From: Acidobacteriota bacterium
GTDB taxonomy: Bacteria; Acidobacteriota; UBA4820; DSQY01
NCBI GenBank assembly: GCA_049967655.1
Contig: JBMFSH010000008.1
Location: forward strand, 1-64,000
Length of the DNA stretch: 64,000 nt
Reading direction: 5' to 3'
Shown one piece after another: positions 343 through 29,776 of this stretch (positions are counted from its first letter, which is position 1; each line of letters opens with the position of its first letter). The notes below the pieces were generated by a model that was not told the DNA's origin, did no database searches, and was given only the letters and a program-made list of their open reading frames with translations. Made by a program: the position numbers and the translations under genes.

Positions 343-882
343 CTATCCCTGGCGAGGCCTGGATTTCAGAACGCGGAGCGCCTCCCTGAGGGCTTCCGGA
401 TCCGCGCTCTTGATGAGCTCTTGCAGCTCGTCCCTCTCCGAGTTCGGCGGCGTGGAGCCGGCCTCGGGCAAATCGACGCGCAACGTGGCGGCGACGGCCT
501 TCACGAACTTGGCGGCCGTGACCGGCTTGTCCAGGTAGGTGGTGGGACCCGACATGGTGCTCTCGGCGAGAGAGGCCGCGGCGTCCAGATCCCTTCGCAC
601 CTTCTCCTCCCGCGCGTGCCCCGTCAGGAACAGGACGGGAATCTTGCTCCAAAGGGGATTCTTATGGAGCTCGTGAAAGAGGACAACGCCCGATTTGCCC
701 GGCATCACCATGTCCAGCGAGATGCAGTCGGGGGGGTTCGCCCTAATCTTCTCCAGGGCCTCATCCACGCTCAAGGCCGTCTCCACCTGGAAACCGGCGT
801 CCTGGAGCGCCGTGCTCAGGAAGAACACCACGTCTTCCTCGTCGTCCACCACCAGCACCCTCTTGCCCTGAGATCTCTCCAT
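343..882 (-). CDS. Response regulator (receiver domain plus short helical C-terminal extension)
   Basis: VLVVDDE...LDMVMPGKSG...LTG...YLDKP receiver motifs; GGAGAGG-type RBS upstream; last gene of the redox operon. Confidence 0.85.
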   Translation of the reverse strand: MERSQGKRVLVVDDEEDVVFFLSTALQDAGFQVETALSVDEALEKIRANPPDCISLDMVMPGKSGVVLFHELHKNPLWSKIPVLFLTGHAREEKVRRDLDAAASLAESTMSGPTTYLDKPVTAAKFVKAVAATLRVDLPEAGSTPPNSERDELQELIKSADPEALREALRVLKSRPRQG

Positions 883-906: not shown

Positions 907-2409
907 TCAGCTTGGCCCCGGCGCACTTCCACCGTTGTCGTCGCCGGGGCTGGTGGGCTTCGGCAGCCTCTCCCGCGGCAACAGGATCCGAAACGAAGTG
1001 CCTTGCCCTTCTTTGGATTCTACCAGGATTCTGCCCCCGTGTTCCTGCACGATCTTGCGCGTCAGAAGGAGCCCCAGGCCCGTGCCCCCCGCGCCCTTGG
1101 TGGTGAAGAAGGTGGTGAAGATCTTCTTCTTAACCTCGTAGTCCATGCCGCAGCCGTCGTCGGAGACTTCGAAGACGAGGACGCCATCCTCCTCCGAGGT
1201 CTTGAGCCGCACCTGGCAACCCGGCTTCTCGCTCGTCTGGCAGGCGTCGATGGCGTTGGAGACAAGGTTGGACAGGCAGGTGTGGATGCCTTCCGCATCC
1301 AGCGGGGCTCGGGCGATGTCCGGCTGGAGGTCGCCGGCGAGCCGGATGCCCAACTTGCCCGCCGTTTCCCGGAAGAGATCCAGGACCTCGCGGGCTACGG
1401 CGTTTGGATCGACGAGGGCGACGGAGGGCACGCGCCCCTTCGAAAACCCCAATAGGTTCTTCACCAGGGCGGATATCTTCTCCACGTTCCTGCTCAGCAT
1501 CTCCATGCCGCGTTGCACTCTCGCCGTCTCGTTCTTGCTGAGGCCCGACTGCATGACGTAGATCCCGCCCTCGAGCCCCATGAGGACGTTCTTGATGCCG
1601 TGGGCGAGTCCCGCCACGGTCTGGCCCACGGCCGCCATCCGCTCCGCCTCCAGCTTCTCCTTCTCCAGGTTGTGCAGGTGGGTGATGTCGGTGGCCATCT
1701 CGATCACAAAGTTGACCCTGCCGTTGGGATCGCCCGCCTCGCGCGAGAGCGGAGAGGCGGTCACGACGTAGTGCATCTCCTCCCCCGACGCCGACATCCC
1801 CACCTGGGTGGAGGTGTGGTCCTGCCCGTCCTCGAACACCATGAGCGCCGGGCATTCTCTGCAGGGCCGGTCGCGCCGCTTATACACCTGGTAGCATCGG
1901 CTGCCCCAGGCATGACCGAAGGTCTCCCGCATCTTGCGGTTCGCCCTTACGATCTCGAGGTCGCGGTCCAGCACGGTGATGTAAGAGGGCGCCCTCTCGA
2001 ACAGCAGCTCGTTCTCGTGCTGAAGGCTGCTGGCCTCGTTCACGTTGGACCCGATCCAGACGAGGTACGGAGGCCTCGACCTGGGCTCCGAGCCGAGGGG
2101 AGCGACACGCACCACGAAGTGAGAGGTCAGGGGACCTCCCATGTGCAGGCGGTCGTCGCAGACCCTGACTTTGCCATCCTCAAAGGTCCAGGCCGCCATG
2201 CACCGCTCGCAGGGAGCGTCCCGCTGCTTCAGGAGCTCGTAGCAGCGCTTCCCGTTCCAAGGCCCGAAGACCTCTTTGAAACGGCCGTTGGCCTCCACGA
2301 TCTCGAAGTCGGCACTGAGGACGGCCACCATGATGGGGGCCTGTTCGAAGAGGTGGTCGTGAAGCAGGTCCTGGATCTCACCCACGGTGAACTCCTCAGC
2401 TCCGCTCAA
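907..2409 (-). CDS. Cytoplasmic PAS-PAS sensor histidine kinase
   Basis: H-box AGLAHGIKN, N-box NLVSNAIDA, G-boxes DDGCGM and GTGLGL; two PAS-like repeats; no TM segment; TTG start overlapping the upstream RR. Confidence 0.9.
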   Translation of the reverse strand: MSGAEEFTVGEIQDLLHDHLFEQAPIMVAVLSADFEIVEANGRFKEVFGPWNGKRCYELLKQRDAPCERCMAAWTFEDGKVRVCDDRLHMGGPLTSHFVVRVAPLGSEPRSRPPYLVWIGSNVNEASSLQHENELLFERAPSYITVLDRDLEIVRANRKMRETFGHAWGSRCYQVYKRRDRPCRECPALMVFEDGQDHTSTQVGMSASGEEMHYVVTASPLSREAGDPNGRVNFVIEMATDITHLHNLEKEKLEAERMAAVGQTVAGLAHGIKNVLMGLEGGIYVMQSGLSKNETARVQRGMEMLSRNVEKISALVKNLLGFSKGRVPSVALVDPNAVAREVLDLFRETAGKLGIRLAGDLQPDIARAPLDAEGIHTCLSNLVSNAIDACQTSEKPGCQVRLKTSEEDGVLVFEVSDDGCGMDYEVKKKIFTTFFTTKGAGGTGLGLLLTRKIVQEHGGRILVESKEGQGTSFRILLPRERLPKPTSPGDDNGGSAPGPS

Positions 2410-2818
2410 AGAGCGCGGTCATGCGAGCGAGCAGGTTGCGGACGGAAATGGGCTTCTCAAGGTATCCATCCGGCAGCGGGACGTGTTCGAGCGAGAGCTG
2501 CCGGAGGGCGGTCCTCTGAAAGTCCTCCTCCTTCGAGTATCCGCTGATGATCAGCACGGGCACCTTGGCGGTCGCCTCCCGCCGGCGCAGTTCCTTGTAA
2601 AGGGAGAGCCCGGAATGGCCGGGCATCATGATATCCAGCAGGATGAGATCGGGGGTCTCCCTCTCGGTGGCCTCGAGGGCGGCATCGGCGTCGCTGGCAC
2701 CGATGGCGCTGAAGCCGTTGTCCTCGAGCACCGCCGAGAGATACTCCACGATGTCCTCCTCGTCGTCCACCACGAGAACCCGCAGCGGCCCCCTACTGGC
2801 GGCGTCCGCGGGGATCAT
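2396..2818 (-). CDS. Single-domain response regulator
   Basis: VLVVDDE, LLDIMMPG, ISGY, YLEKP; ATGA overlap with the upstream gene. Confidence 0.88.
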   Translation of the reverse strand: MIPADAASRGPLRVLVVDDEEDIVEYLSAVLEDNGFSAIGASDADAALEATERETPDLILLDIMMPGHSGLSLYKELRRREATAKVPVLIISGYSKEEDFQRTALRQLSLEHVPLPDGYLEKPISVRNLLARMTALFERS

Positions 2819-4860
2819 GGCCGGGCGGCCTCCTCCGCTCCTTTAGGCAGGGCAGCCATGTACTCCTGTTCCGATTCCGTCCCTGAATTGTGGCAGGTCC
2901 CGCAACGGCCTAGATTGGGATTCTCCGTCATCGGATTGGCGGCCTCCCGCACGTGACATGGGATGCACATTTTGTGCATGGCCTCCTTATAACTCACGGC
3001 CACAGGCGAATCGAACTTGGTCACCACGGGGGCCACCGCGACGGTGTGGCGCAGATGGCAATCGGAACAGGTGACCACCACCCTTGCGCTGGGGGTGCCG
3101 GGACCGTGGCACCTGACACAGGCGCTTTCTCCGCCGAGGTTTTCAACGTGGTAGTTGTGGTCGAATAGGCTGTGGTTCTTCTTGTAGGCCGCGTTGGTTA
3201 TGGCTGAAGGGGGCCAGTGGAACACCTTCAACGTCCTGTAGGGCGCCATCATGTCTTTCTGGTGGCAGTCCGAGCAGCGCTTGATCACCGTCAAGGAGAG
3301 CGGGCTTCCTTGGCCGTGGCACTTGACGCACGAGGCATCCCCCCCATTTCTAGCCACGTGAAGGTTGTGGTTAAAGACATCGCTGGGGGTGTAAAGCTGC
3401 CGGTGACAGTCGCTGCAGGGCGTCCCCACGTCCCCCGGCTTGTGGAGGTGGTGGCACAGACCGCAGGACTTCTGCCCTCCCATTTCCTCCTGGTGCTTCA
3501 CGTGATCGAAATAGACATAGCGTGGACCGGGTCCTAACCTCAGTACCTGCTCGCCCCGCCCGCGTTGAACCGGGTCCTGTATGGCGGGCTGACTCTTGGG
3601 GGCGAGCGTGAGCCCCACGGCCATGGCCAGCACGAAGAGCATGGAGTAGACCCGCAGGGACTTGCGCCAGCCCTCTCCCAGCCAGACCTGCGTGAAGGGG
3701 GCAAAGCGCGGTGTGGACTTCTCGGCCAAAGCCCGCTCCCGCTCGATGGCTTCGAGTCCCTGCGGGTCCACCGGGAAGTGTTCCTCGATGAAGAGGAAAA
3801 CGAGGGCGAGCGCGGCCACGTAGCCTACGTTGATGGCGATCTCGCCCCACGCCGGGATGTACAACCAACGCGTCGCCCAGACCTGGACAAGACCGCTGGT
3901 GTCGATCCGGTTCAGGGTAAAACCGATGATCCCGGTGGCCAAGCCGAGCAGCAACCCGGACGGTGAGCGCCGAAACGCAGGCACGGCGAACACGATTATG
4001 GGGATAACCGTTGAAAGTAGCATCTCAACGATGAAGAGGTTGCTCTCCCAACTGCCGCTGAAGATTAGGCCGAGCTTGTTCTCGAAAGCCAGGTCGGTCA
4101 TCCTGAAGATGCCGTAAAACGCGAGGATCCAAACCACGATGCCGGCGAGCGCCGAGATCATGTCGAGGTTCGGATTCTTCTTGTATAACCAAGGAACCAC
4201 AAACGACACAAACATCACGCTCATGATCCCAAGGCAGATGGCTGAGACGAAGAACAACTCGGGGATCAAGTGGCTGTACCAGAGGGGGTAAATCCTAAAC
4301 GGCATGATGAGTAGCATCGAACCGACCGAGGACTGGTGCAACGTCGAGAGCATGATTCCGAGGATGATGATCGGGAGGCTAAGCTTCTTGAGGAACCCGT
4401 ACGTCCTGCGGAAGCGTGTGCGCTCTAGAATGACGGGCAGGAGTTCGAGAGTCAGCACCGTCAGGTACAACATGATGCACCATGAGACCTCGAAGAGCGG
4501 TGAGTGAATGTTCCAGAAGACTACCGGGTGCCAGACGTTCCACGGCAGCCCGAGATCGAAAATGACGGCGGCCACTACACCAGCGTAGCCGAGAAACGCC
4601 ATCAGGATCGCTGGTCGCGCCGCGGCTTTCAGGCGCTCCCCGTGGAAGATGTGCACCATGGCGGCGAGGACAAAACCGCCGGCTGACACGGCCATCAGGG
4701 TGTAGTCGCCGAAACCGATCCATAAGCCCCACGGGGTCGTATCGGAGAGCGCCGTCGAAGCTCCGAGGCCAAGTGCGAAGCGTAGCAGAGCGATGGCTAC
4801 GGCCAAACCCGCGAGAATCCACAGAAAGCCCTTAAAAATGAATAGGCGCCTATTTTCCAT
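2815..4860 (-). CDS. NrfD/PsrC/HybB(HmcC)-family integral membrane protein fused to a C-terminal octaheme class III-like cytochrome c
   Basis: N-terminal part has PWGLWI, DLGLPW, SPLFEVSWC, LSTLHQSSVG (HybB/HmcC-like); C-terminal part has 8 CxxCH motifs and repeated FxHxxH; start taken at MENRR (4860) with GGAGG RBS. Confidence 0.88.
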   Translation of the reverse strand: MENRRLFIFKGFLWILAGLAVAIALLRFALGLGASTALSDTTPWGLWIGFGDYTLMAVSAGGFVLAAMVHIFHGERLKAAARPAILMAFLGYAGVVAAVIFDLGLPWNVWHPVVFWNIHSPLFEVSWCIMLYLTVLTLELLPVILERTRFRRTYGFLKKLSLPIIILGIMLSTLHQSSVGSMLLIMPFRIYPLWYSHLIPELFFVSAICLGIMSVMFVSFVVPWLYKKNPNLDMISALAGIVVWILAFYGIFRMTDLAFENKLGLIFSGSWESNLFIVEMLLSTVIPIIVFAVPAFRRSPSGLLLGLATGIIGFTLNRIDTSGLVQVWATRWLYIPAWGEIAINVGYVAALALVFLFIEEHFPVDPQGLEAIERERALAEKSTPRFAPFTQVWLGEGWRKSLRVYSMLFVLAMAVGLTLAPKSQPAIQDPVQRGRGEQVLRLGPGPRYVYFDHVKHQEEMGGQKSCGLCHHLHKPGDVGTPCSDCHRQLYTPSDVFNHNLHVARNGGDASCVKCHGQGSPLSLTVIKRCSDCHQKDMMAPYRTLKVFHWPPSAITNAAYKKNHSLFDHNYHVENLGGESACVRCHGPGTPSARVVVTCSDCHLRHTVAVAPVVTKFDSPVAVSYKEAMHKMCIPCHVREAANPMTENPNLGRCGTCHNSGTESEQEYMAALPKGAEEAARP

Positions 4861-5656
4861 TGGGCACCTCCCCCTTTTTTGCTTTCGCAACCTCCTCCGC
4901 CATCATTTTTTTGCGCCGCTCTATGATCCAGTAGATCGAGCCCATCACCGCCCCCATCCCTATGAACTCGAAGGGTACCGGCTTCAGCGCAGCCCAGGTT
5001 AGCGTCGGCAGGGGTTTATCCGTCAGCTCCTTGCTGTCGTTCCAGCCCAGGAAATCCAGGGAGATATCGGCGATGTAGAGGACCGACGTGCCGCCCACGA
5101 TCTTCTCGCCCCAGATGCGCTGGATGTACTTCTTGGGCTCGGCGGCCAAGCGCTTGTGCGCCTCCGCCAGCATCGCCTCGCGGGTTCCGAAGATGGTGGC
5201 TTTCGTGGGGCAGGCCGTGACGCAAGCCGGTTCCTGAATCGCTCCCGACTTGAGGCTGGGGTAGCACATGATGCACTTGCGCACCGAGGGAGCCGCCGAG
5301 GTCCACTCGTAGTGGGGGATACCGAAGGGGCATCCCAGCATGCAGTAGCGGCAGCCCATGCAGATGCTCTTGTCGTAGATGACCGGCCCCTCGGGCGTCT
5401 TCTGCAAGGCGCCGACGGGACAAACGGAGACGCAGGCCGGCTCTTCGCAATGGCGGCACTGCTTCCGCACGAAGTGGTTGTGAGGTTTCCGGATGACCGT
5501 CGTCCAGCGGTCGGCCGAGAGGCCGTCGGGGGTGGAGCCCGGACGGGGAGGCGGTCCCTCCGCCGGCAGGTGGTTGATCTTCTTGCACGCGGCCACGCAC
5601 TGTTCGCAGCCGATGCACTTCGTGACGTCCGTCAGGATGGTGGGATTCTGGATCAT
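4850..5656 (-). CDS. 4Fe-4S dicluster electron-transfer subunit (HybA/HmcB/FdnH-like) with C-terminal TM anchor
   Basis: CIGCEQCVAAC, CRHCEEPACVSVCP, CMGCRYCMLGCP, KCIMC...PACVTACP; C-terminal hydrophobic helix followed by RRKK. Confidence 0.9.
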   Translation of the reverse strand: MIQNPTILTDVTKCIGCEQCVAACKKINHLPAEGPPPRPGSTPDGLSADRWTTVIRKPHNHFVRKQCRHCEEPACVSVCPVGALQKTPEGPVIYDKSICMGCRYCMLGCPFGIPHYEWTSAAPSVRKCIMCYPSLKSGAIQEPACVTACPTKATIFGTREAMLAEAHKRLAAEPKKYIQRIWGEKIVGGTSVLYIADISLDFLGWNDSKELTDKPLPTLTWAALKPVPFEFIGMGAVMGSIYWIIERRKKMMAEEVAKAKKGEVPNGK

Positions 5657-6357
5657 ACGGGCTCACCTGCCTTTCCGAGGGCCTCGCGGACACGCTCGCC
5701 GGAGCCCGGGACGAAGTGCCACCCCAGCTCCCAGGAGATTCTCGTGAAGGGAAAGAGGGCCGCGTGGGCCAGCTTGGTGAAGGGGAGCAGGAGGAGAATC
5801 AGTTCGGCGCTGAGCAGGTGGACGAGGTAGACGAGCGTGAAGGGAAGCGGATTGGCGGCGGGGTGGGCCACGAAGTAGCCCGAGAGAAAGGCGGTAAAGC
5901 AAAGGACAAGCAGAAACCAGTCCTGGAAGGTTCCGAGCGTCCGGGAGGCGCGGTCGGCCAGGCGGAGGAAGGCCAGAGCGGCCAGTCCCAGCAGGGCGGC
6001 TAGCGTCAAACCGTCGGCGACGCCCGGAGGGAGCGTGGGCCAGGAGAGGCCGAGGCCTTTCCGGACCAGCTCCACGTGCCCTGCCAGGAAGAGCGGCACG
6101 AGCAGCATGCCCGCGTGGAAAAGGAGCGAGGCGAAGGTGTAGAAGGTTCGGGTCCCGCGCATCGCGTTCACAGGGAAGATCCACCCGAGGCTGCGCTTGA
6201 AGAGAAAGCTGACGGGCACCCGCTGGTCTCCGGCCTTCTCATAGGCCCTCCAGATCTCCACGACGGTGATGACGAGCTGTCGGAGGAGTCCTAGAAAGAG
6301 GACCATGAAGGCGAAGACGAGCAGCGGCCCCCTGACGAAGTGAGTCACATTTTCCAT
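5653..6357 (-). CDS. NarI/DsrM/HmcE-like diheme cytochrome b membrane subunit
   Basis: About 5-6 TM helices; four His in NarI-like positions (LFHAG, AGHVE, LVHLL, PFTKLAH). Confidence 0.82.
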   Translation of the reverse strand: MENVTHFVRGPLLVFAFMVLFLGLLRQLVITVVEIWRAYEKAGDQRVPVSFLFKRSLGWIFPVNAMRGTRTFYTFASLLFHAGMLLVPLFLAGHVELVRKGLGLSWPTLPPGVADGLTLAALLGLAALAFLRLADRASRTLGTFQDWFLLVLCFTAFLSGYFVAHPAANPLPFTLVYLVHLLSAELILLLLPFTKLAHAALFPFTRISWELGWHFVPGSGERVREALGKAGEPV

Positions 6358-6378
6358 GAGCCGGTCCCCCCAGAAGAA

Positions 6379-7830
6379 TTACAGCACGATGGCCTTGTAG
6401 ATGAGGTCGTGGAGGCCCACCACCTCGACCCCGTCCAGTCCGTTGTCCTCGCAGACCTCCCTGAGCTGCTTCTTGCAGTTGGCGCAGGGGGCCACCACGT
6501 AGTGCGCTTGCGTGGCGCGGATCTGCTCCGCCTTCATGAACCCGGTGGTCTTGGTGCGGTAGGAGCGGATCTCGTCCACGGAAACCGTACCGCCGCCCCC
6601 GCCGCAGCAATAGTTCTTGGCCCCCTTGGGCTCCATGTCCACGTAGTTCTTGCAGAAGGAGCGGAGGATCTCCCTCGGCTGGTCGATGATCCACCCGGTG
6701 CGGGCGATGTTGCAGGGGTCGTGATAGGTCACCCGCTCCGTGATGACGTCGGGGTTGAGTTTGAGTTTTCCCCGCCGGAGCATGTCCAGGGTGACCTCCA
6801 TGATGTTCACGACGGGCAGGGCGTTCTTGCCGCCCCCGAAGGAGGGCACGAAGAGCTTGGCGCTCCGGGAGGCGTGGCCGCACTCTCCGATGAGGATCTT
6901 CTGCCCCTTCAGCCGCTTGGTTTCCGCGATCTCCTTTTGGATGATGCGCTCGGCGCACCAGTCGTTGTAGAAGAGGCCGTAGTTGATGCCGTCGTAGTAG
7001 CCCGTACCGATGGTCCAGCGGTCGGTCTCGCCGGCGGCGTGGAAGGTGACGGCGATTCCCTTGAGCGTCTCCGCCTCCAGGAGGTAGTCGCTCACGGCGG
7101 GGAAGAACACGAACTCGCGTCCCTCCTGATCCACCGGGAAGCTCACCTCCACGCCCTTTTCGTCCTTGATGTCGTCTTGAAGAAACTCCAGGGTGTCCAG
7201 AAGGGCCGGCACGGGAATGGCCGAGGTGTTGCCGGTCTTCCCCTCGAGCTGCTCGCGCGTCGCCACCACCAGAGCCTTGGGGGCGATGTCCATCTCGCTC
7301 AGGATGTAGCGGGCCAGGTGGGTGACCAGGCCGTGGTCGATGCCCATGGGGCACTCGAAGGAGCAGCGGCGGCAGGCGGTGCAGTGGTAGACCGACTCGG
7401 CCAGCTCCGTGATCTTCTCGTCGGTGAGGTAGACGTTCCCCGTGATCTTGCTCTGGAGCACACCGCGGAAGGTGAAGTGCCGCCGGTAGATCTCCAGCAG
7501 CAGATTGGAGCGGTAGCAGGGCACGTCCTTGGGGTCGCGGGTCTTGACGTAGATCTGGCAGGCCACCGCGCAGTTGGCGCACTTGGCTCCCACCCGCGAA
7601 TAGGTGTCCAGGAGCTGCCCGTAGTTGCTGTGCTGGAGGACGGCGGCCATGATCTCCAGGAAGCGCTTGACCTTATCGCCCGGGTAGAGGCGTTCCACGT
7701 AGTAGCTCGTTCCCAGGATTTGGTGGGGCAAGAGCGGCGGCGGCGCCTTGGCCTTGCTGGCGGCCTCGGTCGCCGGGGCCGCCGTCTTTGCCGCCTGTTG
7801 TCCAATCGCTGCGGGCTGATCCTGTGCCAT
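6379..7830 (-). CDS. DsrK/HmcF/HdrD-like Fe-S protein with CCG domain (heterodisulfide-reductase-like)
   Basis: CTACRRCSFECPMGID, GECGHA, YHDPCNIAR, YCCGGGGG, PCANCKKQL; start MAQDQ at 7830 with GGGAGG RBS. Confidence 0.88.
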   Translation of the reverse strand: MAQDQPAAIGQQAAKTAAPATEAASKAKAPPPLLPHQILGTSYYVERLYPGDKVKRFLEIMAAVLQHSNYGQLLDTYSRVGAKCANCAVACQIYVKTRDPKDVPCYRSNLLLEIYRRHFTFRGVLQSKITGNVYLTDEKITELAESVYHCTACRRCSFECPMGIDHGLVTHLARYILSEMDIAPKALVVATREQLEGKTGNTSAIPVPALLDTLEFLQDDIKDEKGVEVSFPVDQEGREFVFFPAVSDYLLEAETLKGIAVTFHAAGETDRWTIGTGYYDGINYGLFYNDWCAERIIQKEIAETKRLKGQKILIGECGHASRSAKLFVPSFGGGKNALPVVNIMEVTLDMLRRGKLKLNPDVITERVTYHDPCNIARTGWIIDQPREILRSFCKNYVDMEPKGAKNYCCGGGGGTVSVDEIRSYRTKTTGFMKAEQIRATQAHYVVAPCANCKKQLREVCEDNGLDGVEVVGLHDLIYKAIVL

Positions 7831-7865: not shown

Positions 7866-8303
7866 TCACGTTTCGTCGCACTCTTCGCCCGACGAACTTT
7901 CCTGGGCGAAGCGCTGGTAGTAGTCGCACTCCTCGCAGTCGCGGAAGCGGCGCGCGGTCAGGGGCAGCAAGCCGTGGAGCTGCCAGCAGTTCAGGGCGCC
8001 GGAGCGATGGATGAGGCAGGTGTCGCACGCCTCGCCCTGCAGGCTTCCCCGACAGTGAAACTCCCAGCAGTAGGGCCGTACGTCCTTCTCTTCGTCCAGC
8101 AGGGCCGTCTCCATGCCCCGCTCCAGCATGAAGGTGCGCAGATCCTCGAGGCGGATCCTATACTGGCCGCCGACGGTACGCTGGGCCTTGAGCTGATTTG
8201 CCCGAATCCAGTTCAAGATGGTCTCCGGGGTCACGAAGCAGAAGCGGGCCACCTGGCCGGTGGAGAAGGCCTTGTAGCGCTCCGACCTCGTTTTCAACGC
8301 CAT
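7866..8303 (-). CDS. Excisionase/MerR-like HTH DNA-binding protein with Cys-rich (CW...CW) C-terminal domain
   Basis: FSTGQVARFCFVTPETILNWIRANQLKAQRTVGGQYRI fits HTH_17-like; C-terminus CWEFHC..CDTC..CW..CEEC; AAGGAG RBS. Confidence 0.8.
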   Translation of the reverse strand: MALKTRSERYKAFSTGQVARFCFVTPETILNWIRANQLKAQRTVGGQYRIRLEDLRTFMLERGMETALLDEEKDVRPYCWEFHCRGSLQGEACDTCLIHRSGALNCWQLHGLLPLTARRFRDCEECDYYQRFAQESSSGEECDET

Positions 8304-8366: not shown

Positions 8367-8382
8367 TGCATTCCGGATGCCA
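8367..8382 (-). promoter_or_regulatory. Putative sigma54 -24/-12 promoter of the redox operon
   Basis: Minus strand TGGCATCCGGAATGCA has GG and GC at exact sigma54 consensus spacing (TGGCACG-N4-TTGCW); a sigma54 activator is encoded divergently. Confidence 0.7.
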
Positions 8383-8624: not shown

Positions 8625-9980
8625 ATGGACCAGAAAAGGCTGGATTCCCGTTACTTCCCTCTCGTATTGGACGTGGTGGACCAGGGCATCTTCACGGTAG
8701 ATCCCTCGGGACTGGTCACCTCCTTCAACAAGGCCGCCGAACAGATCACGGGGTTTAGCGAGGAGGAGGTCCTGGGGCACCGTTGCGACTCCGTCTTCCG
8801 GACCAACCTGTGCAAGACCGTCTGCCCCCTGCGCCGGAGCATCGCCACGGGGGAGAGGGCCCAGAACAGCCGGGTGCGCATCCACCGCAAGGATGGACAG
8901 ACCGTGCTGGTGGCCCTCAGCACCGCGCCGCTCAAAACCGGCGAGGGGCAGCTCTTGGGCGGGGTCGAGGTGTTCAGAGACATCTCCCACGTGGAGGCGC
9001 TCAAGCGCAAACTGGATGGTCAGTACCAATTCGAGGACATCGTCAGCCGGAACCCCGCCATGAACCGGATCTTCCAGATCCTGCCAGCGGTCTCCGAGAG
9101 CACCAGCACCATCCTCATCACCGGCGCGAGCGGAACGGGCAAGGAGCTCGTCGCCAAGGCCATCCACAACCACGGGGCCAGGCGCCGCAGGCCATTCGTG
9201 GCGCTCAACTGCGCGGCCCTGCCTGAGACCCTGCTGGAATCCGAGCTCTTCGGCTATCGACGGGGCGCCTTCACGGACGCCAAGCGCGACAAGGCGGGCC
9301 GCATCGCCCAGGCGGAGGGCGGCACGCTGTTCCTGGACGAGGTGGGCGACCTGCCCAAGAGCCTCCAGGTCAAGCTGCTGCGCTTTCTCCAGGAGAAGAG
9401 CTACGAGCCCCTCGGCTCGAACCTCACCCTCAAGGCCGACGTGCGGGTCATCACGGCTACCCACAGGGACCTGGAGGCCATGGTTCGCGAGGGAAGTTTC
9501 CGGGAGGATCTCTTCTTTCGCCTCAACATCCTTCAGATCGCCCTGCCCCCCCTTTCCAAACGCCCCGAGGACATCCCGCTCCTGGTTCGCCACTTCATCC
9601 AGCGGTTCCGCGACGCCACGGGCAAGCCCATCCTGGACGTGACTCCCGAAGCCCTCTCCGCCCTGCTCCGCTACGACTACCCCGGCAACATCCGCGAGCT
9701 GGAGAACCTCATCGAGAGGGCCTTCATTCTCTGCAACGAGTCGGAGATCCAAATCGAGTGCCTGCCGCCGCACGTGGCGGAGTGCGCGGGGCTCCCCGCC
9801 AAGCCGGCCGAGGTGGAGGGCCAGGGCCTCCAGCGCCTGGAGGCGGAGGCCATCCGCGCCGCCCTCGCCAGCCACTCCAACAACCGGAGCCGCGCGGCGA
9901 AGGAACTGGGGATCCACCGCTCCACGCTATTGAGGAAGATGCGCCGCCATGGTCTCCTGTCAGCGGACGGCCGCCCATGA
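8625..9980 (+). CDS. PAS-domain sigma54-dependent transcriptional activator (NtrC/Fis family)
   Basis: PAS, Walker [45 protein letters not shown]-terminal Fis HTH. Confidence 0.93.
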
Positions 9981-11374
9981 CAGCGGATCGAGCGCCTCGC
10001 ATGGTGGTGGCCGGACTGGGGGGCGACTCGGGCAAAACCCTCCTCTCGCTCGGTCTCCTCCTCTCCTTCCGGCGGGCCGGGCGTGAGGTGGCGGCCTTCA
10101 AGAAGGGGCCCGATTACATCGACGCGGCCTGGCTCTCCTGGGCCTCGGGCCGACCGGCCCGAAATCTGGACAGCTACCTCATGGGATTCGACGTTGCCGC
10201 CGGTTCCTTCTGCCGCCACGCCAGCCGCGCAGGCCTCAACGTGATCGAGGGGAACCGGGGGCTCTACGACGGGGTCGATTCGGCCGGAACGCACAGCACG
10301 GCGGAGCTGGCCAAGGCCATACAAGCCCCCGTGATCCTGGTCGTCAACGCGACCAAGGTTACGCGCACCGCGGCGGCTTACGTGCTGGGCTGCCAGGCCA
10401 TGGACCCCGCCGTCCGCCTCGCCGGCGTCGTGCTGAATCAGGTGGCTGGTAAACGCCACGAGGCGGTCCTGCGCCAGGCCATCGAGGAGACCTGCGGAGT
10501 CTCCGTCCTGGGCCTGCTGCCCCGAGCACCGGGGGAGGCCGTCCTCCCCGGGCGGCACCTGGGACTCGTGACCCCCAGCGAGCATCCCCGCATCGCCGAA
10601 TTGGAGAGCAACCTGCTGAGGCTCCTGGAAGGCCACCTCGACCTGGACCGGCTCGCGGCCATCGCTGCGGCCGCCCCGCCCCTGCCCGTTCCGGCCCCCT
10701 CCGGCCGCCATCCCGCCGGGTCGGCCGCGGTGAAGATCGGCTACGTTCACGATTCAGCCTTCACCTTCTACTACCCCGAGAACCTCGAATCTCTCGAACG
10801 GGGCGGCGCCCAGTTGGTCCCCCTCTCGGCCCTGCGCGACCAGGCCCTTCCTCCGGGGCTCCAGGCCCTCTACATCGGTGGAGGCTTCCCTGAGACGCAC
10901 GGCGCCGCCCTGGGCGAGAACACCGGCTTCCTCGCTTCCGTTCGGCAGGCCGCCGAGAGGGGATTGCCCATCTACGCGGAGTGCGGAGGGCTCATGTTCC
11001 TGTCCCAGGCCCTCCGCTGGCAAGGCCGGCGCTACCCGATGGCGGGGGTGCTTCCCTTCGAGGTGGAGGTGACGGCGAGGCCGCAGGGGCACGGTTACGC
11101 CGAACTGGAGGTGGACCGGGACAACCCGTTCTTTGCCCCGGGGACGCGCCTGAAAGGTCATGAATTCCACTATTCGAGGATCCTCGCGCCCGGAGCCCCC
11201 CCTCCCACGGCTTGCTGCGTCAAGCGGGGAACGGGCGCCCTTCCCGGTCGTGACGGCGTGGTGGTGGGCCGCGTATGGGCCAGCTACACCCACCTGCACG
11301 CCCTGGCCACGCCGGAGTGGACCAATTCGTTACTCTCTATCGCCGGTGATTTCGCCCGCCACTGTAACAGCTAA
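9977..11374 (+). CDS. cbiA: Cobyrinate a,c-diamide synthase family amidase (CbiA/CobB; in this context possibly DsrN siroheme amidase)
   Basis: GDSGKT, FKKGPDYID, IEGNRGLYDG, AFTFYYPEN, GGGFPE, YAECGGLM, GHEFHYS; ATGA overlap with the activator gene. Confidence 0.88.
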   Translation: MTADRAPRMVVAGLGGDSGKTLLSLGLLLSFRRAGREVAAFKKGPDYIDAAWLSWASGRPARNLDSYLMGFDVAAGSFCRHASRAGLNVIEGNRGLYDGVDSAGTHSTAELAKAIQAPVILVVNATKVTRTAAAYVLGCQAMDPAVRLAGVVLNQVAGKRHEAVLRQAIEETCGVSVLGLLPRAPGEAVLPGRHLGLVTPSEHPRIAELESNLLRLLEGHLDLDRLAAIAAAAPPLPVPAPSGRHPAGSAAVKIGYVHDSAFTFYYPENLESLERGGAQLVPLSALRDQALPPGLQALYIGGGFPETHGAALGENTGFLASVRQAAERGLPIYAECGGLMFLSQALRWQGRRYPMAGVLPFEVEVTARPQGHGYAELEVDRDNPFFAPGTRLKGHEFHYSRILAPGAPPPTACCVKRGTGALPGRDGVVVGRVWASYTHLHALATPEWTNSLLSIAGDFARHCNS

Positions 11375-11614: not shown

Positions 11615-12886
11615 ATGAGCAAACTGGTACCCCCACACGGCAGTAAAGAACTCAAGTGCCTTCTGCTCGAAGGGAAGGCCAAGGAAGACGAGATCAAGAA
11701 GGCCCAGGGCCTGAAGAGGGTTCCCATCACCAGCCGCGAGACCGGCGACCTGATCATGATGGGTATCGGCGGCTTCACGCCCCTCGATGGATTCATGGGC
11801 CAGGCCGACTGGAAGGGCGTCTGCGACGAGTACAAGATGCCCAGCAAGAACGGCCTCTTCTGGCCCATTCCGATCACGCTGTCGGCCACCAAGGAGCTCG
11901 CCGACTCCATCAAGGCCAACGAGGAAGTGGCTCTCTGGGACACGGAGACGGACACGCTCATGGCCACCATGAAGGTGACCGAGAAATACACCATCGATAA
12001 GGCCTACGAGTGTCAGAAGGTCTTCAAGACCACGGATATGGCGCACCCCGGCGTGAAGATGGTCATGGAGCAGGCCGACGTGAACCTGGCCGGCCCCGTC
12101 AAGGTGCTCTCCGAGTCCTACTTCCCCGAGCAGTTCAAGGGCCTCTATCAGCGTCCCGCCGAAGCTCGCAAGATGTTCGAGGAGCGCGGCTGGAGTACGG
12201 TGGCCGCTCTGCAGCTGCGCAATCCCATGCACAATTCCCACGCCTACCTGGCCTGGATCGCCATCGAGGTCTGCGACGGCGTCTACATCCACCAGCTCGT
12301 GGGCAAGCTCAAGCCCGGCGACATCCCGGCCGACGTCCGCGTGAAAGCCATCGACGCCCTGGTCAACAAGTACTTCCGCAAGGAGCGCGTGGCCATGGCC
12401 GGCTATCCCCTCGACATGCGGTACGCGGGACCGCGCGAAGCGTTGCTCCACGCCGTGTTCCGGCAGAACTACGGCTGCTCGCACCTCATCGTGGGACGCG
12501 ACCACGCCGGCGTGGGCGACTACTACGGCCCCTTCGACGCTCAGAAGATCTTCCTTGAGATCCCGCCCGACGCCCTCCAGCTCAAGCCCCTCTGCATGGA
12601 CTGGACCTTCTACTGCTACGAGTGTGGCACCATGGCCTCCATGAAAACCTGCCCGCACGAGAGCAAAGCCGTCATCGACGAACAGGGCAACTACAAGGGA
12701 GGCGCCAGGCTGCTGCTTTCCGGTACCCTCCTCCGCAAGCTCATGAGCGAGGGCAAGCCCGTGCCGAAGGAGTTCTCCAAGCCCGAGGTCATCGCCGTTC
12801 TGAAGGAGTACTACGACCACCTCGAAGAGAAGGTGGAAGTGAAGCTTCACGGTGCGGCCACGGGAGACGCCAACAAGAAACGCTGA
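11615..12886 (+). CDS. sat: Sulfate adenylyltransferase (ATP sulfurylase, homo-oligomeric Sat type)
   Basis: MSKLVPPHG start, [29 protein letters not shown], zinc knuckle CYEC...CPH; GAGGAGG RBS. Confidence 0.95.
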
Positions 12887-23124: not shown

Positions 23125-26100
23125 CTATGGCTCCCCCTCGGCCGGCGCCTTCTCCCGGGCACCCCCACCGCCCCATCGGAGATAGAGGGCCGGGATCAGG
23201 TTGGTGCTCAGGAGGGAGCTCCAGAGCGTCCCTCCGAGAATGACGAGGGCGAGCCCCTGTTCGGGCTCGGCGCCCAGCCCCCAGCCCAGGGCCGTGGGCA
23301 GAACGCCCAGCGCGGCGGTGAGGGTCGTGAGGAGGATGGGGCGGAAGCGGACGCGCACGGCTTCGCGGACCGCCTCCCCGCGCTCCATCCCCAGAGCCTC
23401 GTTCTTGCGGGCCCGGTGCAGCAGCACGATGTCGTGGTTGAGGCTCATGCCCACGAGCGTGAGCAGCCCCACGAGGCCCGTGGCGTTCAACCCCACCCCG
23501 CTCACCGCCAGCGCCAGCGAGCCCCCCGTAAAGGCCAGCGGCATCTCGATCATGAGCAGGGCCGGGAGCCGCCAGCCATCGAACTGGAGCAGCAGGATGC
23601 CCAAGAGGAGCACCAGCGCGCCGAGGAGGGCGACCCCCAGTCCCGCGGCCGTCTGTTCGAGCTCCAGGAGAAGGCCGCCGAACTCGACGCGGTAGCCCGG
23701 GGGCACGGTGAGCCCCGCAAGGGCTCGGCGGGCCTCCGAAATGGTGCTGCCGAGCGGGCCCGTGGGGGTCGCCAGGATCTGGACGGCTCGCGCGCCGTCG
23801 ATGTGGCGGATGGCGTTGGGGCCCTGCACCAAGTTCACCGAGGCGAGCTGTCCCAGGGGCGTCCAGCCCCCGCCGGTACGCAGGAGCAGGTCGCGAAGGC
23901 CCGCCATACCGATGCCTGGGGCATCCGCGAGCCGTAGGTAGAGATCGAGGTGGTAGTTGCCGCTCGGAATGCGGGCGACGACGCTCCCGCCGAGGGCGGG
24001 CCGGATCTGGTCGTAGAGCTCCGCCGGCGTGATGCCGTAGAGGGCCATGGCTCCCTCATCGGGCCGGATCTGGAGCTCGCTCACGGGGTAGGCGTCGTTG
24101 TTGAAGAGGTCCGTGAGGGCTTTCACGTGCTTGAGGCGGGCGGTGACGGCCTCGGAGAGGGTTCGCAGCTCTCCCAAGTCCTCTCCGTAGACCGTGACGG
24201 CGAAGGGCTGGGGCAGGCCCGAGAGGCTCTCTCCCAGCCGCTCGATGGTGGGCGTGTCGATACTCTGCTGGACACCGTCCATGGCGGCCTCGCGTAGGAG
24301 GCGGGCGGCCACGCGGTCCAGGCTCTGGACCTTGACGCCCGGCTTGAGCGTGACCTGGATCTCCCCGGCGTAGGCCGGCTCGGTGTAGGTGGTCTTGGCG
24401 GACGAGCCGACGCGGGCCAGGACGTGCTCCACGTCGCCGTCGGCCATGAGCTTGGCCGTCAGGCGGTCCACCACGCGCCGGGTCTCCCGAAGGCCCGTCC
24501 CGGGCGGCAGGGTGTAGCTGTCGAGCAGCACCCCCTCGTTGGGCAGGGGCAAAAAGTTGACGGGCACGAACACGAGCACGGCGATGCTCAGGAGGAGCAG
24601 AACCACGGCGGCGGCCAGGCTCGCCCCCGGCCGGCGCAGCGTGAGGCTCAAGAGCCGCTCGTTCTGCCGCTCCAGCCAGGCAACGAAGGGGGCCCCGGGC
24701 GCGGGAGCGCTCGCCCCCCTCGCGCGCAACATGCCCAGGAGCAGGGGGACGAGGGTCAGGGAGATGAGCAGCGAGGCGAGGAGCGAGATGCTCATGGCCA
24801 GGGCGAAGGGGATGAAGAAGAGGCCGGCGATGCCGCCCACCAGCAGGAGCGGGAGGTAAACCGAAACCGTGCTGAAGGTGCCCGTAGCGTCGGGGGCCGC
24901 GATGTCGCAGAGGCCGAGCCAGACGCCCTCGCGCCCCTCGTGGCCGTTCTCCCACTGGTGGTAGATGCTCTCGAGTACGATGATGCCGTCGTCGGCCAGG
25001 AGGCCCACGGCCACCGACAGGGCGCCGAGCGTCAGGAGGTTCAGGCTCTGGCCCGTGGCGTAGAGGCCGGCGATGCCCACGAGCAGGGCCATGGGGATGC
25101 TCAACGCCAGGATCCAGACGCCCCGGTGCAGCCCCAGGAGCCAGAAGAGGACGAGGACCGCCAGAATCCCGCCGATGATCAGGTTCCGTCCCAGGTCGTG
25201 GCCGATCAGGCCCACCACCTGCCCCTGGGTGTAGATGCGAACCCAGCGGGCCCCCGCGGGAAGCTGGCCCTTCAGCGATTCGAGCGTGCGGGCCAGGGCC
25301 CGGGTGACGGGGACGGTGGAGGCCCCCGAGTGCTTGAAGACGAGCATGGCGACGGTCTGCCTGCCGTCCAGCAGTTCGGCGTTGCGCATGGGCTTGGTGG
25401 CGGTCACGATGCGGGCCAGCGCCCTGAGGGGGATGGGGCCGGAGGGTGCCGGCACGGTGACGGCGTCCAGCGCCGCCACGGTCTTCGGGAGGTCTCTCGC
25501 CTGGATCAGCACGTCCTGGTAGCCCAGGCGCAGATAGCCCGCCGGCCCCAGCAGCACCTGCTTCCGGAGCGTCTGCTCCAGGAGCGGGAGGGGCACCCCG
25601 TAGTGCCGGAGGGCGTTTAGGTCGGGCTGGACCCAGAGGGCCTCGGTGCCGCCGCCGAAGACGATCACCCGCTGGACTCCCGGCAGGGCCCGCACCGCGG
25701 GTTCGACGCGCGTGATGACGGCCCGTTCGGCTGCGGCCGGGGAGACCCCCGCGGGGACGCTGAGGGCGTAGTCAGCCACCTCGTTGATGGCCGCGCCCAT
25801 GATCTCGGCGTAGGGCTCCACGCCGGCGGGCAGGCTGTTGCGCACGCGATCCATGGCCCCGTAGACCGCCTGCAGGTCCATCTGCGGGTCGGAGCCGTTG
25901 CGAAAGCGGGCGTCGATCTCCAGCGTGTTTTGCCCCATGACCGAGCGGAGGGAGGAGAGGGCCGGGAGGGAAAGGAGCTGGCCCTCCAGGGGCCGCGCCA
26001 CGAGGTTTTCAAGGTCCTCCGCCGTGGCCCCGGGGTAGTGGGCCGTGATGGCGATCTCCGGGTAGTTGAAGCGGGGCAGCACCTCCACGGGGATGTTTTT

Positions 26101-26196
26101 GAGCGCCACCAGGCCGTAGGCCAGGAGGCCCCCGAAGATCATGAGCCAGAGGACGGGCCGATCGAGGCTGCGGCGGAAGAGGGATTTCAGCTCCAT
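23125..26196 (-). CDS. RND efflux permease (AcrB/CzcA-like)
   Basis: 1023 aa, PVEVLPRFNYP, LNLLTLGAL..GLLADDGIIVLE, RFRPILLTTL. Confidence 0.92.
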   Translation of the reverse strand: MELKSLFRRSLDRPVLWLMIFGGLLAYGLVALKNIPVEVLPRFNYPEIAITAHYPGATAEDLENLVARPLEGQLLSLPALSSLRSVMGQNTLEIDARFRNGSDPQMDLQAVYGAMDRVRNSLPAGVEPYAEIMGAAINEVADYALSVPAGVSPAAAERAVITRVEPAVRALPGVQRVIVFGGGTEALWVQPDLNALRHYGVPLPLLEQTLRKQVLLGPAGYLRLGYQDVLIQARDLPKTVAALDAVTVPAPSGPIPLRALARIVTATKPMRNAELLDGRQTVAMLVFKHSGASTVPVTRALARTLESLKGQLPAGARWVRIYTQGQVVGLIGHDLGRNLIIGGILAVLVLFWLLGLHRGVWILALSIPMALLVGIAGLYATGQSLNLLTLGALSVAVGLLADDGIIVLESIYHQWENGHEGREGVWLGLCDIAAPDATGTFSTVSVYLPLLLVGGIAGLFFIPFALAMSISLLASLLISLTLVPLLLGMLRARGASAPAPGAPFVAWLERQNERLLSLTLRRPGASLAAAVVLLLLSIAVLVFVPVNFLPLPNEGVLLDSYTLPPGTGLRETRRVVDRLTAKLMADGDVEHVLARVGSSAKTTYTEPAYAGEIQVTLKPGVKVQSLDRVAARLLREAAMDGVQQSIDTPTIERLGESLSGLPQPFAVTVYGEDLGELRTLSEAVTARLKHVKALTDLFNNDAYPVSELQIRPDEGAMALYGITPAELYDQIRPALGGSVVARIPSGNYHLDLYLRLADAPGIGMAGLRDLLLRTGGGWTPLGQLASVNLVQGPNAIRHIDGARAVQILATPTGPLGSTISEARRALAGLTVPPGYRVEFGGLLLELEQTAAGLGVALLGALVLLLGILLLQFDGWRLPALLMIEMPLAFTGGSLALAVSGVGLNATGLVGLLTLVGMSLNHDIVLLHRARKNEALGMERGEAVREAVRVRFRPILLTTLTAALGVLPTALGWGLGAEPEQGLALVILGGTLWSSLLSTNLIPALYLRWGGGGAREKAPAEGEP

Positions 26197-26203
26197 GCCT
26201 GGC

Positions 26204-27250
26204 TCAGTCGGGAGGGGTGTAGCTCTTGGCTACGTCCTGGTGGAAGCGGAGGTACGCGTCGTTGGCCACCACACGGTCACCGGCCTTGAGCCCCCTCACG
26301 ATGGCCCGCCAGCCGTCCGACTCGGGCCCCGGTTCCACCTCGCGGCGCTCCTCGCCCGAGGGGCCGGCGATCAGCACGTACCACTGCTGCCCCTTGAGCA
26401 CGAGGGCACGCTCGGGCACGGCCGGCCACGAGGCGGCGGCTCCCTCCAGCCTCAGCGTGCCTGCCTGGCCGCTGATCCAAGCTGCGGGTCCGATGGGCAC
26501 GCACCCAACGGCGCGGCCGCCGTCGGGCCTCACGGGAGCGATGACGCCGCGGACCTGGACCGGTACCGGCTCGCCTCCCCCCGCCGGCGTGAAGAGGCCC
26601 TTCATGCCGGCCTTGAGCTCCAGGGCGTCACGGCCGTAGAAGACGGCGCGCGCCCAGAGCCGGGCCGGGTCCTCCAGGCGGGCCAGCACCGTTCCGGCCG
26701 CGACCGGCTGCCCTTGGGCAACGGCCACCTCCGTCACCGTTCCGCTGACGGGGGCTCGGATCTCTCCCTCCGCGCTGACAAAGGTCCACCGGGCCTTGGC
26801 CGCCTTCAGGGCACTTGCGGTCTGGGTGACTGCCGCCTGGGCCTCGGCCAGCTTCTGGCTGTTGCTGATCACGGGATAGGTCTGATGAACCACGGCCTCG
26901 TTTCTCTTAGCCAGATCGAGGGCACTCTCCGCCTGGTCCAGCGCGGAGCGGGCCTCGGCCAGCTCCTTGGCTCGCTCGGGGCCCGCGAGGCGTCCCAGCA
27001 GCTCCCCCCTCCGGACGGCCATGCCCGGCGAGACCTTCCACTGAACCAGCGTGCCGTCCACGAGGGCCGGTACGGTGACGAGAGCCACCGGCTCCACGAG
27101 GGCATAGGCCGTGAGCGAAGTCGAAAAGGATCTCTCATGGACGACGATAGGCGCCTCAGCCCCCCCCGGCGCGCCGGAGCCCATGGCGGCACCGGCCGGA
27201 AGGAGGGAGAGAGAGACGAACACCGCAGTGGTCAAGACCTTGGAGCGCAT
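26204..27250 (-). CDS. RND periplasmic adaptor (membrane fusion protein)
   Basis: Signal peptide, lipoyl halves (IRAPVSGTV), alpha-hairpin, GLKAGDRVV; AGGAGG RBS. Confidence 0.85.
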   Translation of the reverse strand: MRSKVLTTAVFVSLSLLPAGAAMGSGAPGGAEAPIVVHERSFSTSLTAYALVEPVALVTVPALVDGTLVQWKVSPGMAVRRGELLGRLAGPERAKELAEARSALDQAESALDLAKRNEAVVHQTYPVISNSQKLAEAQAAVTQTASALKAAKARWTFVSAEGEIRAPVSGTVTEVAVAQGQPVAAGTVLARLEDPARLWARAVFYGRDALELKAGMKGLFTPAGGGEPVPVQVRGVIAPVRPDGGRAVGCVPIGPAAWISGQAGTLRLEGAAASWPAVPERALVLKGQQWYVLIAGPSGEERREVEPGPESDGWRAIVRGLKAGDRVVANDAYLRFHQDVAKSYTPPD

Positions 27251-27287
27251 GGCCCCTCCTCGGACGGAGTACCATCCGTTTGAAATC

Positions 27288-27320
27288 AGTATAGCGCCCC
27301 AGGTTACGGCAGCCTTACCG
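27288..27320 (-). promoter_or_regulatory. Putative -10 plus OmpR-type direct-repeat box for the left RND operon
   Basis: Minus strand GGTAA-N6-CGTAA, 10 nt, TATACT. Confidence 0.45.
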
Positions 27321-27650
27321 TCATCCGGGAGACGCGAAAGGCAAGGCGTGAGGCGCAAGACACGAGATCCAAAAGTCCCTCCCCCGGGCTGGTGAAGGGA
27401 TAACGGATGATGGCTGAGGGAGCGGTCGCGTTATGGCCCCGACCTCCGATCCGAAATCCTAACTCCGCGATCCCCACTTCACATTCCCCCTTCCTCGATG
27501 TGGAGGTCTCTGTCTTCCGGACTCCGCCTCCCCACACCGCCCCTGGACAGCCCGGGGGCTCTCGGATAGGCTGTCCCTGACGCACGGCGGGCAACAGGCG
27601 ATTGGATCGCGACAGGGTGCCGGGCCGGAGCTCTTCGTCGGGAGGGACTC

Positions 27651-28337
27651 ATGCGTCTATTGATCGTGGAGGATGACCCGCAGATAGCCGCCCTCTCCAA
27701 GAAGAAGCTGGAGGAGGCCGGCTTTGCGGTGGACTGGGCGAGAGACGGCGAGGAGGGGCTCTCCCTTGCGCTGGCCGAACCCTACGACTGCGCCGTCGTA
27801 GACGTCATGCTGCCCCGGCTGGACGGCCTCTCCCTCATCCGGGAGATGAGGAAGGAGCGAGTGAATACGCCCGTCCTGATCCTGAGCGCCAAGCGCTCCG
27901 TGGAGGACCGGGTGGAGGGGCTTCATTCGGGGAGCGACGACTACCTCACCAAACCCTTCGCCTTCTCCGAGCTCCTGGCGCGCATCCATGCCCTCCTCCG
28001 CCGCGCCACCGGGGCCATGGAGCCGGTGCGGCTGGAGGCCGGAGACCTCTCCCTGGACCTCCTGCGCCACGAGGCCTTCCGGGGAGGCAAGCGCATCAAC
28101 CTCAAACCGAAGGAGTTCTCCCTTCTGGAGTACCTCATGCGCAGCAGGGGGCGGGTCGTCTCCAAGACGATGATCCTGGAACACGTCTGGGATTATCACT
28201 TCGAGCCCCAGGCCAACGTGGTCGAGGCCGCCATCAGCCGCCTGCGCGACAAGGTGGACCGCGACTTCGAGCCCAAGATGATCCGCACGTTGCGGGGGGT
28301 GGGGTACCTCCTCGAGGCGTCCCGTGACACACCCTAG
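27651..28337 (+). CDS. OmpR/CusR-family response regulator
   Basis: MRLLIVEDD, DVMLP, DDYLTKPFAFSELLARI, winged helix IRTLRGVGY. Confidence 0.93.
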   Translation: MRLLIVEDDPQIAALSKKKLEEAGFAVDWARDGEEGLSLALAEPYDCAVVDVMLPRLDGLSLIREMRKERVNTPVLILSAKRSVEDRVEGLHSGSDDYLTKPFAFSELLARIHALLRRATGAMEPVRLEAGDLSLDLLRHEAFRGGKRINLKPKEFSLLEYLMRSRGRVVSKTMILEHVWDYHFEPQANVVEAAISRLRDKVDRDFEPKMIRTLRGVGYLLEASRDTP

Positions 28338-29715: not shown

Positions 29716-29733
29716 ACCCTCGCGAACTCAACC

Positions 29734-29776
29734 GGTCAGGCCGGGTCACGTTCAGGTCATGTTGTTCGCCTACAAT
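29734..29776 (+). promoter_or_regulatory. Putative response-regulator direct repeats plus -10 for the right RND operon
   Basis: GGTCA at 29734, 29744 and 29755 (10-11 bp period), then TACAAT at 29771. Confidence 0.5.

Follow-up and report, generated by a model that had tools for sequence, protein, structure and literature searches.

The first 64,000 nucleotides (nt) of contig JBMFSH010000008.1 (Acidobacteriota bacterium, assembly GCA_049967655.1), hereafter the window, carry four contiguous genes, all on the minus strand at 7830..2815 and in the order K-M-O-P-cytochrome, whose products represent a real, widespread and apparently undescribed variant of the transmembrane redox complexes typified by DsrMKJOP and Hmc, assembled from known modules and closely tied to the Dsr pathway. 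On the sequence evidence the complex is a chimera, because the catalytic subunit K belongs to the DsrK radiation while M, O and P, which make up the membrane scaffold, are of the Hmc/Tmc type. The position of the set, proposed in an original prediction made from the DNA alone, was borne out by the gene coordinates and by Pfam (CCG and Fer4 in K, Nitrate_red_gam in M, Fer4_11 in O, NrfD and Cytochrom_CIII/C7 in P-cytochrome). The translational coupling that had been described for most of the genes is seen in the overlaps between M and O (4 nt) and between O and P-cytochrome (11 nt), only K and M being separated by a gap (21 nt); the P-cytochrome gene overlaps the next gene, encoding a response regulator, by 4 nt.

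Neighborhood counts refer to the best 80 loci of at least 574 matches. The order K-M-O-P was kept in 73 of these loci; six were truncated at contig ends and L055 was without K. The loci originate from Acidobacteriota, NC10, Zixibacteria, Ignavibacteria/Kryptonia/Bacteroidetes, KSB1, Phycisphaerales, Anaeromyxobacter and Deltaproteobacteria, and the conserved order spans at least six lineages, so that the four genes are co-conserved; a lack of co-conservation had been set beforehand as a refutation. Regarding the link to dissimilatory sulfur metabolism, 31 of the 80 loci contained dsrA no more than 10 kb away, and of the 49 genomes behind the other loci 39 had it elsewhere; several unrelated lineages have dsrAB or dsrMKJOP as immediate neighbors of the operon. 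Among 301 Acidobacteriota genomes with a completeness of at least 90%, 32 had dsrA, 28 had a K orthologue (at least 55% identity; two in fragments) and 26 had both, i.e., the orthologue was present in 26/32 dsrA-positive and 2/269 dsrA-negative genomes. The latter two (G163 and G239, at least 94% complete) were fragmented into 500 and 390 contigs, respectively, and yielded K without dsrA or dsrJ being found. A DsrC-family gene was detected in 5/5 dsrA-negative operon genomes tested. The suggested connection to sulfur respiration is thus supported by the co-occurrence with dsrAB, dsrC and dsrJ; the adjacency to sat is only local (4/80 loci). Several genomes (G008, G009, G036, G169 and G311) contain two copies of the K orthologue, and the second loci that were fetched from two-copy genomes (L110, L111, L112, L114, L116 and L119) showed the same four genes with an O protein lacking a twin-arginine translocation (Tat) signal. 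A tandem double-DsrC-like protein without C-terminal cysteines was seen directly after a CCG protein (L100/L133:3500-4177).

K (6379..7830, minus strand) is a cytoplasmic Fe-S protein of 483 amino acids (aa) with Pfam CCG and Fer4 domains. It scored 283 bits against the NCBIfam DsrK model NF045796 (cut-off 400), 202 bits against HmcF (cut-off 750) and 197 bits against TmcB (cut-off 735), and is about one third identical to the DsrK of the host. Phylogenetic trees were inferred under LG+G4 (69/105 rows) and under a mixture model (44 rows) with a quick tree search, the references being labeled by NCBIfam score (a single HmcF exceeded the cut-off, and the TmcB-like rows fell slightly short of it). 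The K copies of the operon formed one clade (Shimodaira-Hasegawa-like approximate likelihood ratio test, SH-aLRT, 98-99), separate from the clade of over-cut-off DsrK proteins, and this clade was placed in a well-supported radiation together with DsrK and MK-only paralogues (SH-aLRT 99, two models), apart from HmcF/TmcB. A topology joining K to HmcF/TmcB as a clade was rejected by the approximately unbiased (AU) test (p=1.7e-7). The initial description as a DsrK/HmcF-like CCG protein is therefore upheld as to the DsrK radiation and abandoned as to the HmcF type. The sequence of K contains two ferredoxin motifs, the motif GECGH (Cys317) and one five-Cys CCG motif; Cys317 and all five CCG cysteines were kept in 33/33 operon copies, and the corresponding cysteines are given as catalytic features of DsrK (bioRxiv 2023.08.03.551783). 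The first Cys of ferredoxin motif 1 was missing in 33/33 copies, all of which had a new invariant cysteine, Cys105, whereas the motif was canonical (CxxCxxCxxxC) in DsrK (11/11), Tmc/Hmc (8/8) and MK-only proteins (7/7). In the simplest reading of these alignments, Cys105 would be a swapped-in cluster ligand. A PDB sequence search with K yielded a single weak match (9ojn_A, E 8e-9).

P-cytochrome (2815..4860, minus strand, 681 aa, eight CxxCH motifs; Pfam NrfD and Cytochrom_CIII/C7) consists of an HmcC/HybB-type NrfD domain of 10 helices (P), an 11th helix and a c3-type multihaem domain. The scores were 230 bits for HmcC (cut-off 550), 225 for HybB (450), 38.5 for HmcA (400) and 28 for TmcA (114). 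Of the 120 homologues listed, 116 carried six CxxCH motifs C-terminal to the NrfD domain, and an artefactual or chance fusion was ruled out because of this common architecture. All six proximal and all six distal His residues were invariant in 116/116 fusions; the invariant distal His lead to the prediction that all haems are bis-His electron carriers with no open site. The loop charges across the 116 fusions put the N-terminus inside and the haem domain outside, which rules out an inverted NrfD subunit; together with the 11-helix model they predict a periplasmic haem domain. The structure model showed 11 long helices with a mean predicted local distance difference test (pLDDT) score of 66, values beyond residue 535, i.e., in the haem domain, being mostly below 50. 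Asp102, Ser120, Glu124, Glu139, His175, Ser178 and Arg318 are retained in P, as they are in true HmcC and HybB; Asp102, Ser120, Glu124, Glu139, His175 and Arg318 match, by offset and not by alignment to NhcC, the quinone-site/channel residues described for NhcC (PMC8076601). A PDB sequence search with the fusion gave no match. Of the earlier description as an NrfD/HmcC/DsrP-like protein with its own multihaem domain, the HmcC/HybB type and the fused haem domain were retained and the DsrP type was dropped.

M (5653..6357, minus strand, 234 aa) is a short TmcC/HmcE-type membrane protein of the NarI family with a weak Pfam match to Nitrate_red_gam (E 6.6e-5). It scored 122 bits against TmcC (cut-off 240) and 120 bits against HmcE (cut-off 275); the DsrM model NF038037, for which the DsrM of the host scores 520, gave no match at E 0.001, so that the proposed NarI/DsrM/HmcE-like cytochrome b is of the TmcC/HmcE type and not a DsrM. 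Four His residues were invariant in 40/40 aligned rows and are predicted to hold two haems b. The protein also has a family-specific conserved cytoplasmic C-terminal extension.

O (4850..5656, minus strand, 268 aa; Pfam Fer4_11) is an HmcB/HybA-type ferredoxin scoring 236 bits against HmcB (cut-off 420), the model being matched from position 38 of 307. Its C-terminal membrane tail is followed by the Arg/Lys cluster ERRKK, a feature also of HmcB and HybA. In small trees with few outgroups and poorly aligning DsrO rows, O grouped with HmcB/HybA and P with HmcC/HybB rather than with DsrO/DsrP; accordingly, the HybA/HmcB part of the predicted HybA/HmcB/DsrO likeness was confirmed and the DsrO part was not. 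No Tat signal was found on O in any examined copy (78 locus copies and 11 further copies): 59 of the 78 begin at most 12 residues ahead of the first cluster motif, and in the remaining 19 the longer in-frame stretches overlap the M gene or the contig end. Of the three copies flagged by a lenient Tat rule, two (L037, L071) proved to be in-frame shadows of M and the third (L070) a fragment at a contig end. The Tat controls were positive (HmcB from true Hmc operons 4/4, the HybA of the host and four DsrO). Tat-like signals were likewise not found on K (0/61 copies) or M (0/70 copies). The N-terminus of the NrfD subunit resembles a Tat signal in the window copy; among the 116 fusions it has RR in 50, KR/RK in 13 and a single R in 52, and because RR occurs in just 50/116 a Tat role is unsupported family-wide. 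The same applies to the region ahead of helix 11 (RR in 51/116). No obvious carrier for O turned up when the host was searched for orphan redox proteins with a Tat signal; tatC is present. A comparable case is a tail-anchored, signal-less ferredoxin paired with a HybB-like module (PMC10924467), as O is with P; there, however, the gene immediately upstream supplies a Tat-bearing Fe-Fe hydrogenase as the carrier, whereas no Tat-bearing partner was found in the four-gene operon. The missing Tat signal on O is the one feature that no current explanation covers.

No subunit nested inside a characterized Hmc, Tmc or DsrMKJOP clade, which would have been the second refutation set beforehand, and none passed an NCBIfam cut-off. 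The four-gene complex shares with DsrMKJOP the module types, the genomes and often the gene cluster, and its K, as a member of the wider DsrK radiation, keeps GECGH and the single CCG motif. It differs in that K is below cut-off and outside the DsrK clade with a non-canonical ferredoxin motif 1, in that DsrM has ~330 aa whereas M is of the short type without a DsrM match, in that a separate trihaem DsrJ faces a fused six-haem bis-His domain with no dsrJ in the operon, and in that the Tat signal of DsrO is lacking in O, which instead has the C-terminal tail that DsrO lacks. With HmcABCDEF of Desulfovibrio vulgaris the similarities are the closeness of O, P and M to HmcB, HmcC and HmcE/TmcC, the c3-type haem domain, the 10-helix NrfD core with the quinone-site residues (HmcC) and the four His of a dihaem cytochrome b (HmcE); Hmc and Hmc/Tmc hybrid operons moreover have a related helix-turn-helix (HTH) regulator upstream, with receiver proteins and kinases nearby. 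In contrast to that system, in which the 16-haem HmcA is separate, the cytochrome is fused behind the 11th helix of the NrfD subunit; the small hydrophobic HmcD is absent, there being no room between the four genes; K is not of the HmcF/TmcB type (AU test); and O lacks the Tat signal that HmcB carries (4/4). A plain Hmc orthologue was ruled out by the sub-cut-off scores and the AU test on K. TmcABCD, with its tetrahaem TmcA, has no NrfD module, while the NrfD module is present here and the TmcA, TmcB and TmcC scores are below cut-off. Hybrid operons of the order tmcC-tmcB-hmcA-hmcB-hmcC were observed in the phylum of G106 (L126, L129, L130 and L131), two of them with a window-type HTH regulator upstream; L129 passes the HmcA, HmcB, HmcC and TmcC cut-offs.

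The arrangement had been called non-canonical, which holds for the fused cytochrome and less so for the gene order: the Hmc of Thermodesulfovibrio is reported with the order CCG protein, 16-haem cytochrome, one gene unnamed there, ferredoxin and NrfD (PMC5165239), i.e., similar save for the separate cytochrome, and order alone is therefore not the novelty. Paralogues termed dsrM2/dsrK2 are reported near dsrAB in peat Acidobacteria and Ca. Thermonerobacter (PMC6018796, PMC6338057), which are extra DsrMK-like genes in the same kinds of lineage; the available text of these papers names the MK pair alone, with no ferredoxin or NrfD-cytochrome fusion, and K and M of the four-gene type may be listed as dsrM2/K2 in the supplements. 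In the available text of PMC10504309, Hmc and Tmc are named only as filters. No description of the four-gene set or of the fusion was found in the literature searched, which did not extend to supplements, figures and subscription reviews.

The host genome (3.14 Mb, 99% complete) contains dsrAB, dsrC, aprA, sat, qmoC and a separate canonical dsrMKJO set, with dsrA, dsrC, aprA and qmoC over cut-off. The use of the operon as a stand-in for a missing DsrMKJOP was ruled out: DsrJ passed the cut-off in the host and in 43 of the 46 operon genomes tested, and the operon is therefore an addition to the canonical complex and no substitute. DsrL-like and DsrT-like genes are carried by host contig C22, and a hydrogenase-2 operon is located on contig C20. 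An 82-aa gene after the host dsrB (L005:13860-14108) is DsrD-like by position only, without a match to Pfam DsrD. Between dsrB/dsrD-like and dsrL lies a conserved gene for a 144-aa protein without Pfam/NCBIfam match (L005:13342-13776), found in the same place in 12/80 loci. A further DsrMK-like pair of the MK-only type, followed by a DivK-like regulator, occurs at the end of host contig C26 (L007:10526-13802); in 20/80 loci a pair of this type is also found close to the operon or dsrAB, and the type has its own clade in the K tree. A multihaem cytochrome c of the host fused to a cytochrome b561-type domain (L142:1210-3279) is a possible periplasmic partner.

The window contains a specific allele of the cytochrome end of the complex. 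A tract at approximately 2835..5055 (minus strand), comprising the O tail and the whole P-cytochrome gene, looks replaced according to synonymous divergence and strain read matches. From about codon 200 of O through the fusion gene, the synonymous difference to two same-genus genomes was 0.58-0.60; in the same comparison it was 0.13-0.31 for the flanking genes and 0.40 for M, and the two same-genus genomes differ from each other by only 0.09 across the tract. Related strains in four public runs matched both flanks, but only patches of 2835-5020. The tract therefore looks as if it had been imported from a more distant lineage, and the cytochrome end of the complex appears to be exchangeable. 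The cytochrome domain of the window also contains an internal duplication (3004..3378, minus strand; residues ~495-550 and ~565-619, 24/56 identical), which adds two CxxCH motifs and one HxxH pair; eight motifs were seen in 1/120 homologues listed, i.e., in the window protein.

All dedicated regulators that had been noted near the operon were located. The first gene of the predicted operon (7866..8303, minus strand) encodes an HTH_17/MerR-like DNA-binding protein with a Cys-rich C-terminal part according to Pfam; it was found in 15/80 loci, and its product is 47% identical to that of the gene upstream of the true Hmc operon L129. A sigma-54-type -24/-12 promoter motif (8368..8382, minus strand) lies ~65 nt upstream; with a pattern that was picked after inspection of the window and its relatives, it was detected in 25/56 upstream regions versus 2/168 background stretches. 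Downstream of the operon on the same strand, a DivK-like receiver protein (2396..2818), a PAS histidine kinase (907..2409) and a second receiver protein (343..882) were annotated using Pfam/NCBIfam, and a kinase gene occurs at most 900 nt downstream in 41 of the 66 loci with enough flank. The divergent PAS-domain sigma-54 activator (8628..9980, plus strand; Pfam), with homologues of at least 40% identity in 29/80 loci, is the likely regulator of the four-gene operon, which would thus be under sigma-54 and two-component control. The DsrN-like gene and sat were also found as predicted. The former (9977..11374, plus strand) codes for a CobB-family amidase (424 bits, cut-off 254) and is likely the host DsrN, since it is the sole such gene found in the host genome and its relatives occur in dsrAB-dsrL-dsrN-dsrC clusters of related genomes; sulfate adenylyltransferase (sat) is encoded at 11615..12886 (plus strand; 488 bits, cut-off 387). 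In some Ignavibacteria-type loci a NifX/FeMo-cofactor-domain gene takes the place of the HTH gene before K (L051:6224-6985 and L065:6222-6971). A row of several RND/HlyD/outer-membrane efflux systems, ordinary by Pfam, extends over 23125-39238 of the window.

DsrMKJOP is reported to reduce the DsrC trisulfide as a menaquinol:DsrC-trisulfide oxidoreductase (bioRxiv 2023.08.03.551783). The four proteins presumably form one physical complex, for which a role as an accessory conduit beside the canonical DsrMKJOP has about an even chance of being correct; electrons would pass from periplasmic haems via the quinone pool to K, which would reduce the trisulfide of DsrC as its presumed substrate. A periplasmic donor would reduce the six (in the window eight) bis-His c haems of P-cytochrome, from where electrons would reach the Fe-S clusters of O and then menaquinone at a periplasm-side site of P; menaquinol would deliver them via the two b haems of M to the clusters of K, whose non-cubane cluster and Cys317 would act on the trisulfide. 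Several observations weigh against this accessory conduit. Its periplasmic path needs an exported O, yet on neither O nor any other protein of the operon was a Tat signal found. A free type-I cytochrome c3 that could serve as donor was not found in the host, where the three PF02085 matches are the window gene, an alternative-complex-III-like cytochrome and a multihaem-cytochrome b protein bound to the membrane. The GECGH and single CCG motifs are also common to HmcF and TmcB and therefore do not name the substrate. Asp51 in helix 2, typical of the family, is Gly in the window, with Asp at 52, a Gly51/Asp52 pair shared with P0002. Locus L055 consists of M-O-P without K, and six of the 32 dsrA-positive genomes lack a K orthologue, so that K is either dispensable or unassembled there. 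The co-occurrence counts, finally, are not independent, because the genomes are related and 16/28 come from one family.

Electron flow through the same complex in the reverse direction is unlikely. In this reading K would oxidize reduced or persulfidated DsrC, and the electrons would pass through the quinone pool and out onto the periplasmic haems, serving to oxidize sulfide, to poise the redox state or to supply an external acceptor, as has been proposed for Hmc. Such a direction is in keeping with DsrL in 20/80 loci, with the redundancy of a second reductase where canonical DsrMKJOP is already present in 43/46 genomes, and with the dedicated sensors, which suggest conditional use. The direction of the Dsr pathway of the hosts has been called uncertain (PMC10564751, PMC6018796), and Hmc has been described as probably working outward (PMC5109826). 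The dsrD-like gene after the host dsrB, assigned by position only, speaks against outward flow. Bis-His c3-type haems usually lie at low potential, which also favors the inward direction of the accessory conduit. The absence of a Tat signal on O, when the HmcB, HybA and DsrO controls carry it, is accommodated by a rewired topology, in which O is not exported but remains tail-anchored on the cytoplasmic face and joined to M-K, and the haem domain meets the quinone site of P directly. The conserved cytoplasmic tail of M, specific to this family, fits such an arrangement, as does the Tat-bearing hydrogenase partner of the signal-less ferredoxin in PMC10924467, no counterpart of which was found here. 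The rewiring is nevertheless improbable: the Arg/Lys cluster after the O tail, as in HmcB/HybA, predicts an N-out orientation, the periplasmic loops of P retain the motifs for docking ferredoxins of this type, and in the window the O tail and P appear to have been exchanged in one and the same event, which suggests that they are paired. K might also act on a different thiol, disulfide or persulfide, the dsr link then reflecting a shared anaerobic sulfur lifestyle. The identity of only about one third to the host DsrK, the score of 283/400 bits, the family-wide Cys swap and the two genomes (G163, G239) with K in which neither dsrA nor dsrJ was found would agree with another carrier; since both of these genomes are fragmented and have a DsrC-family gene, and since dsrAB or dsrMKJOP are immediate neighbors of the operon in several unrelated lineages, there is little probability that DsrC is not the partner.

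It is also conceivable, at a low probability, that the operon encodes a third family of DsrC-linked complexes, widespread in uncultured DsrL-bearing lineages. In such complexes O would either cross the membrane by an unrecognized route, e.g., piggybacked on the polytopic NrfD subunit through the Arg-rich N-terminus of the latter, or remain cytoplasmic in a rewired complex whose haems meet the quinone site directly. If so, the complex may let the hosts switch the electron source or the direction of their Dsr pathway. The four-gene complex bears on the electron feed and energy coupling of DsrC-trisulfide reduction; the role of the JOP-type module has been called an enigma (bioRxiv 2023.08.03.551783). 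It constitutes a second complex in most dsrA-bearing Acidobacteriota sampled (26/32) and in many Ignavibacteria, Zixibacteria and others, and provides a four-gene alternative to DsrMKJOP with its own sequence markers, namely the Cys swap in K and the NrfD-hexahaem fusion, together with a puzzle of protein export.

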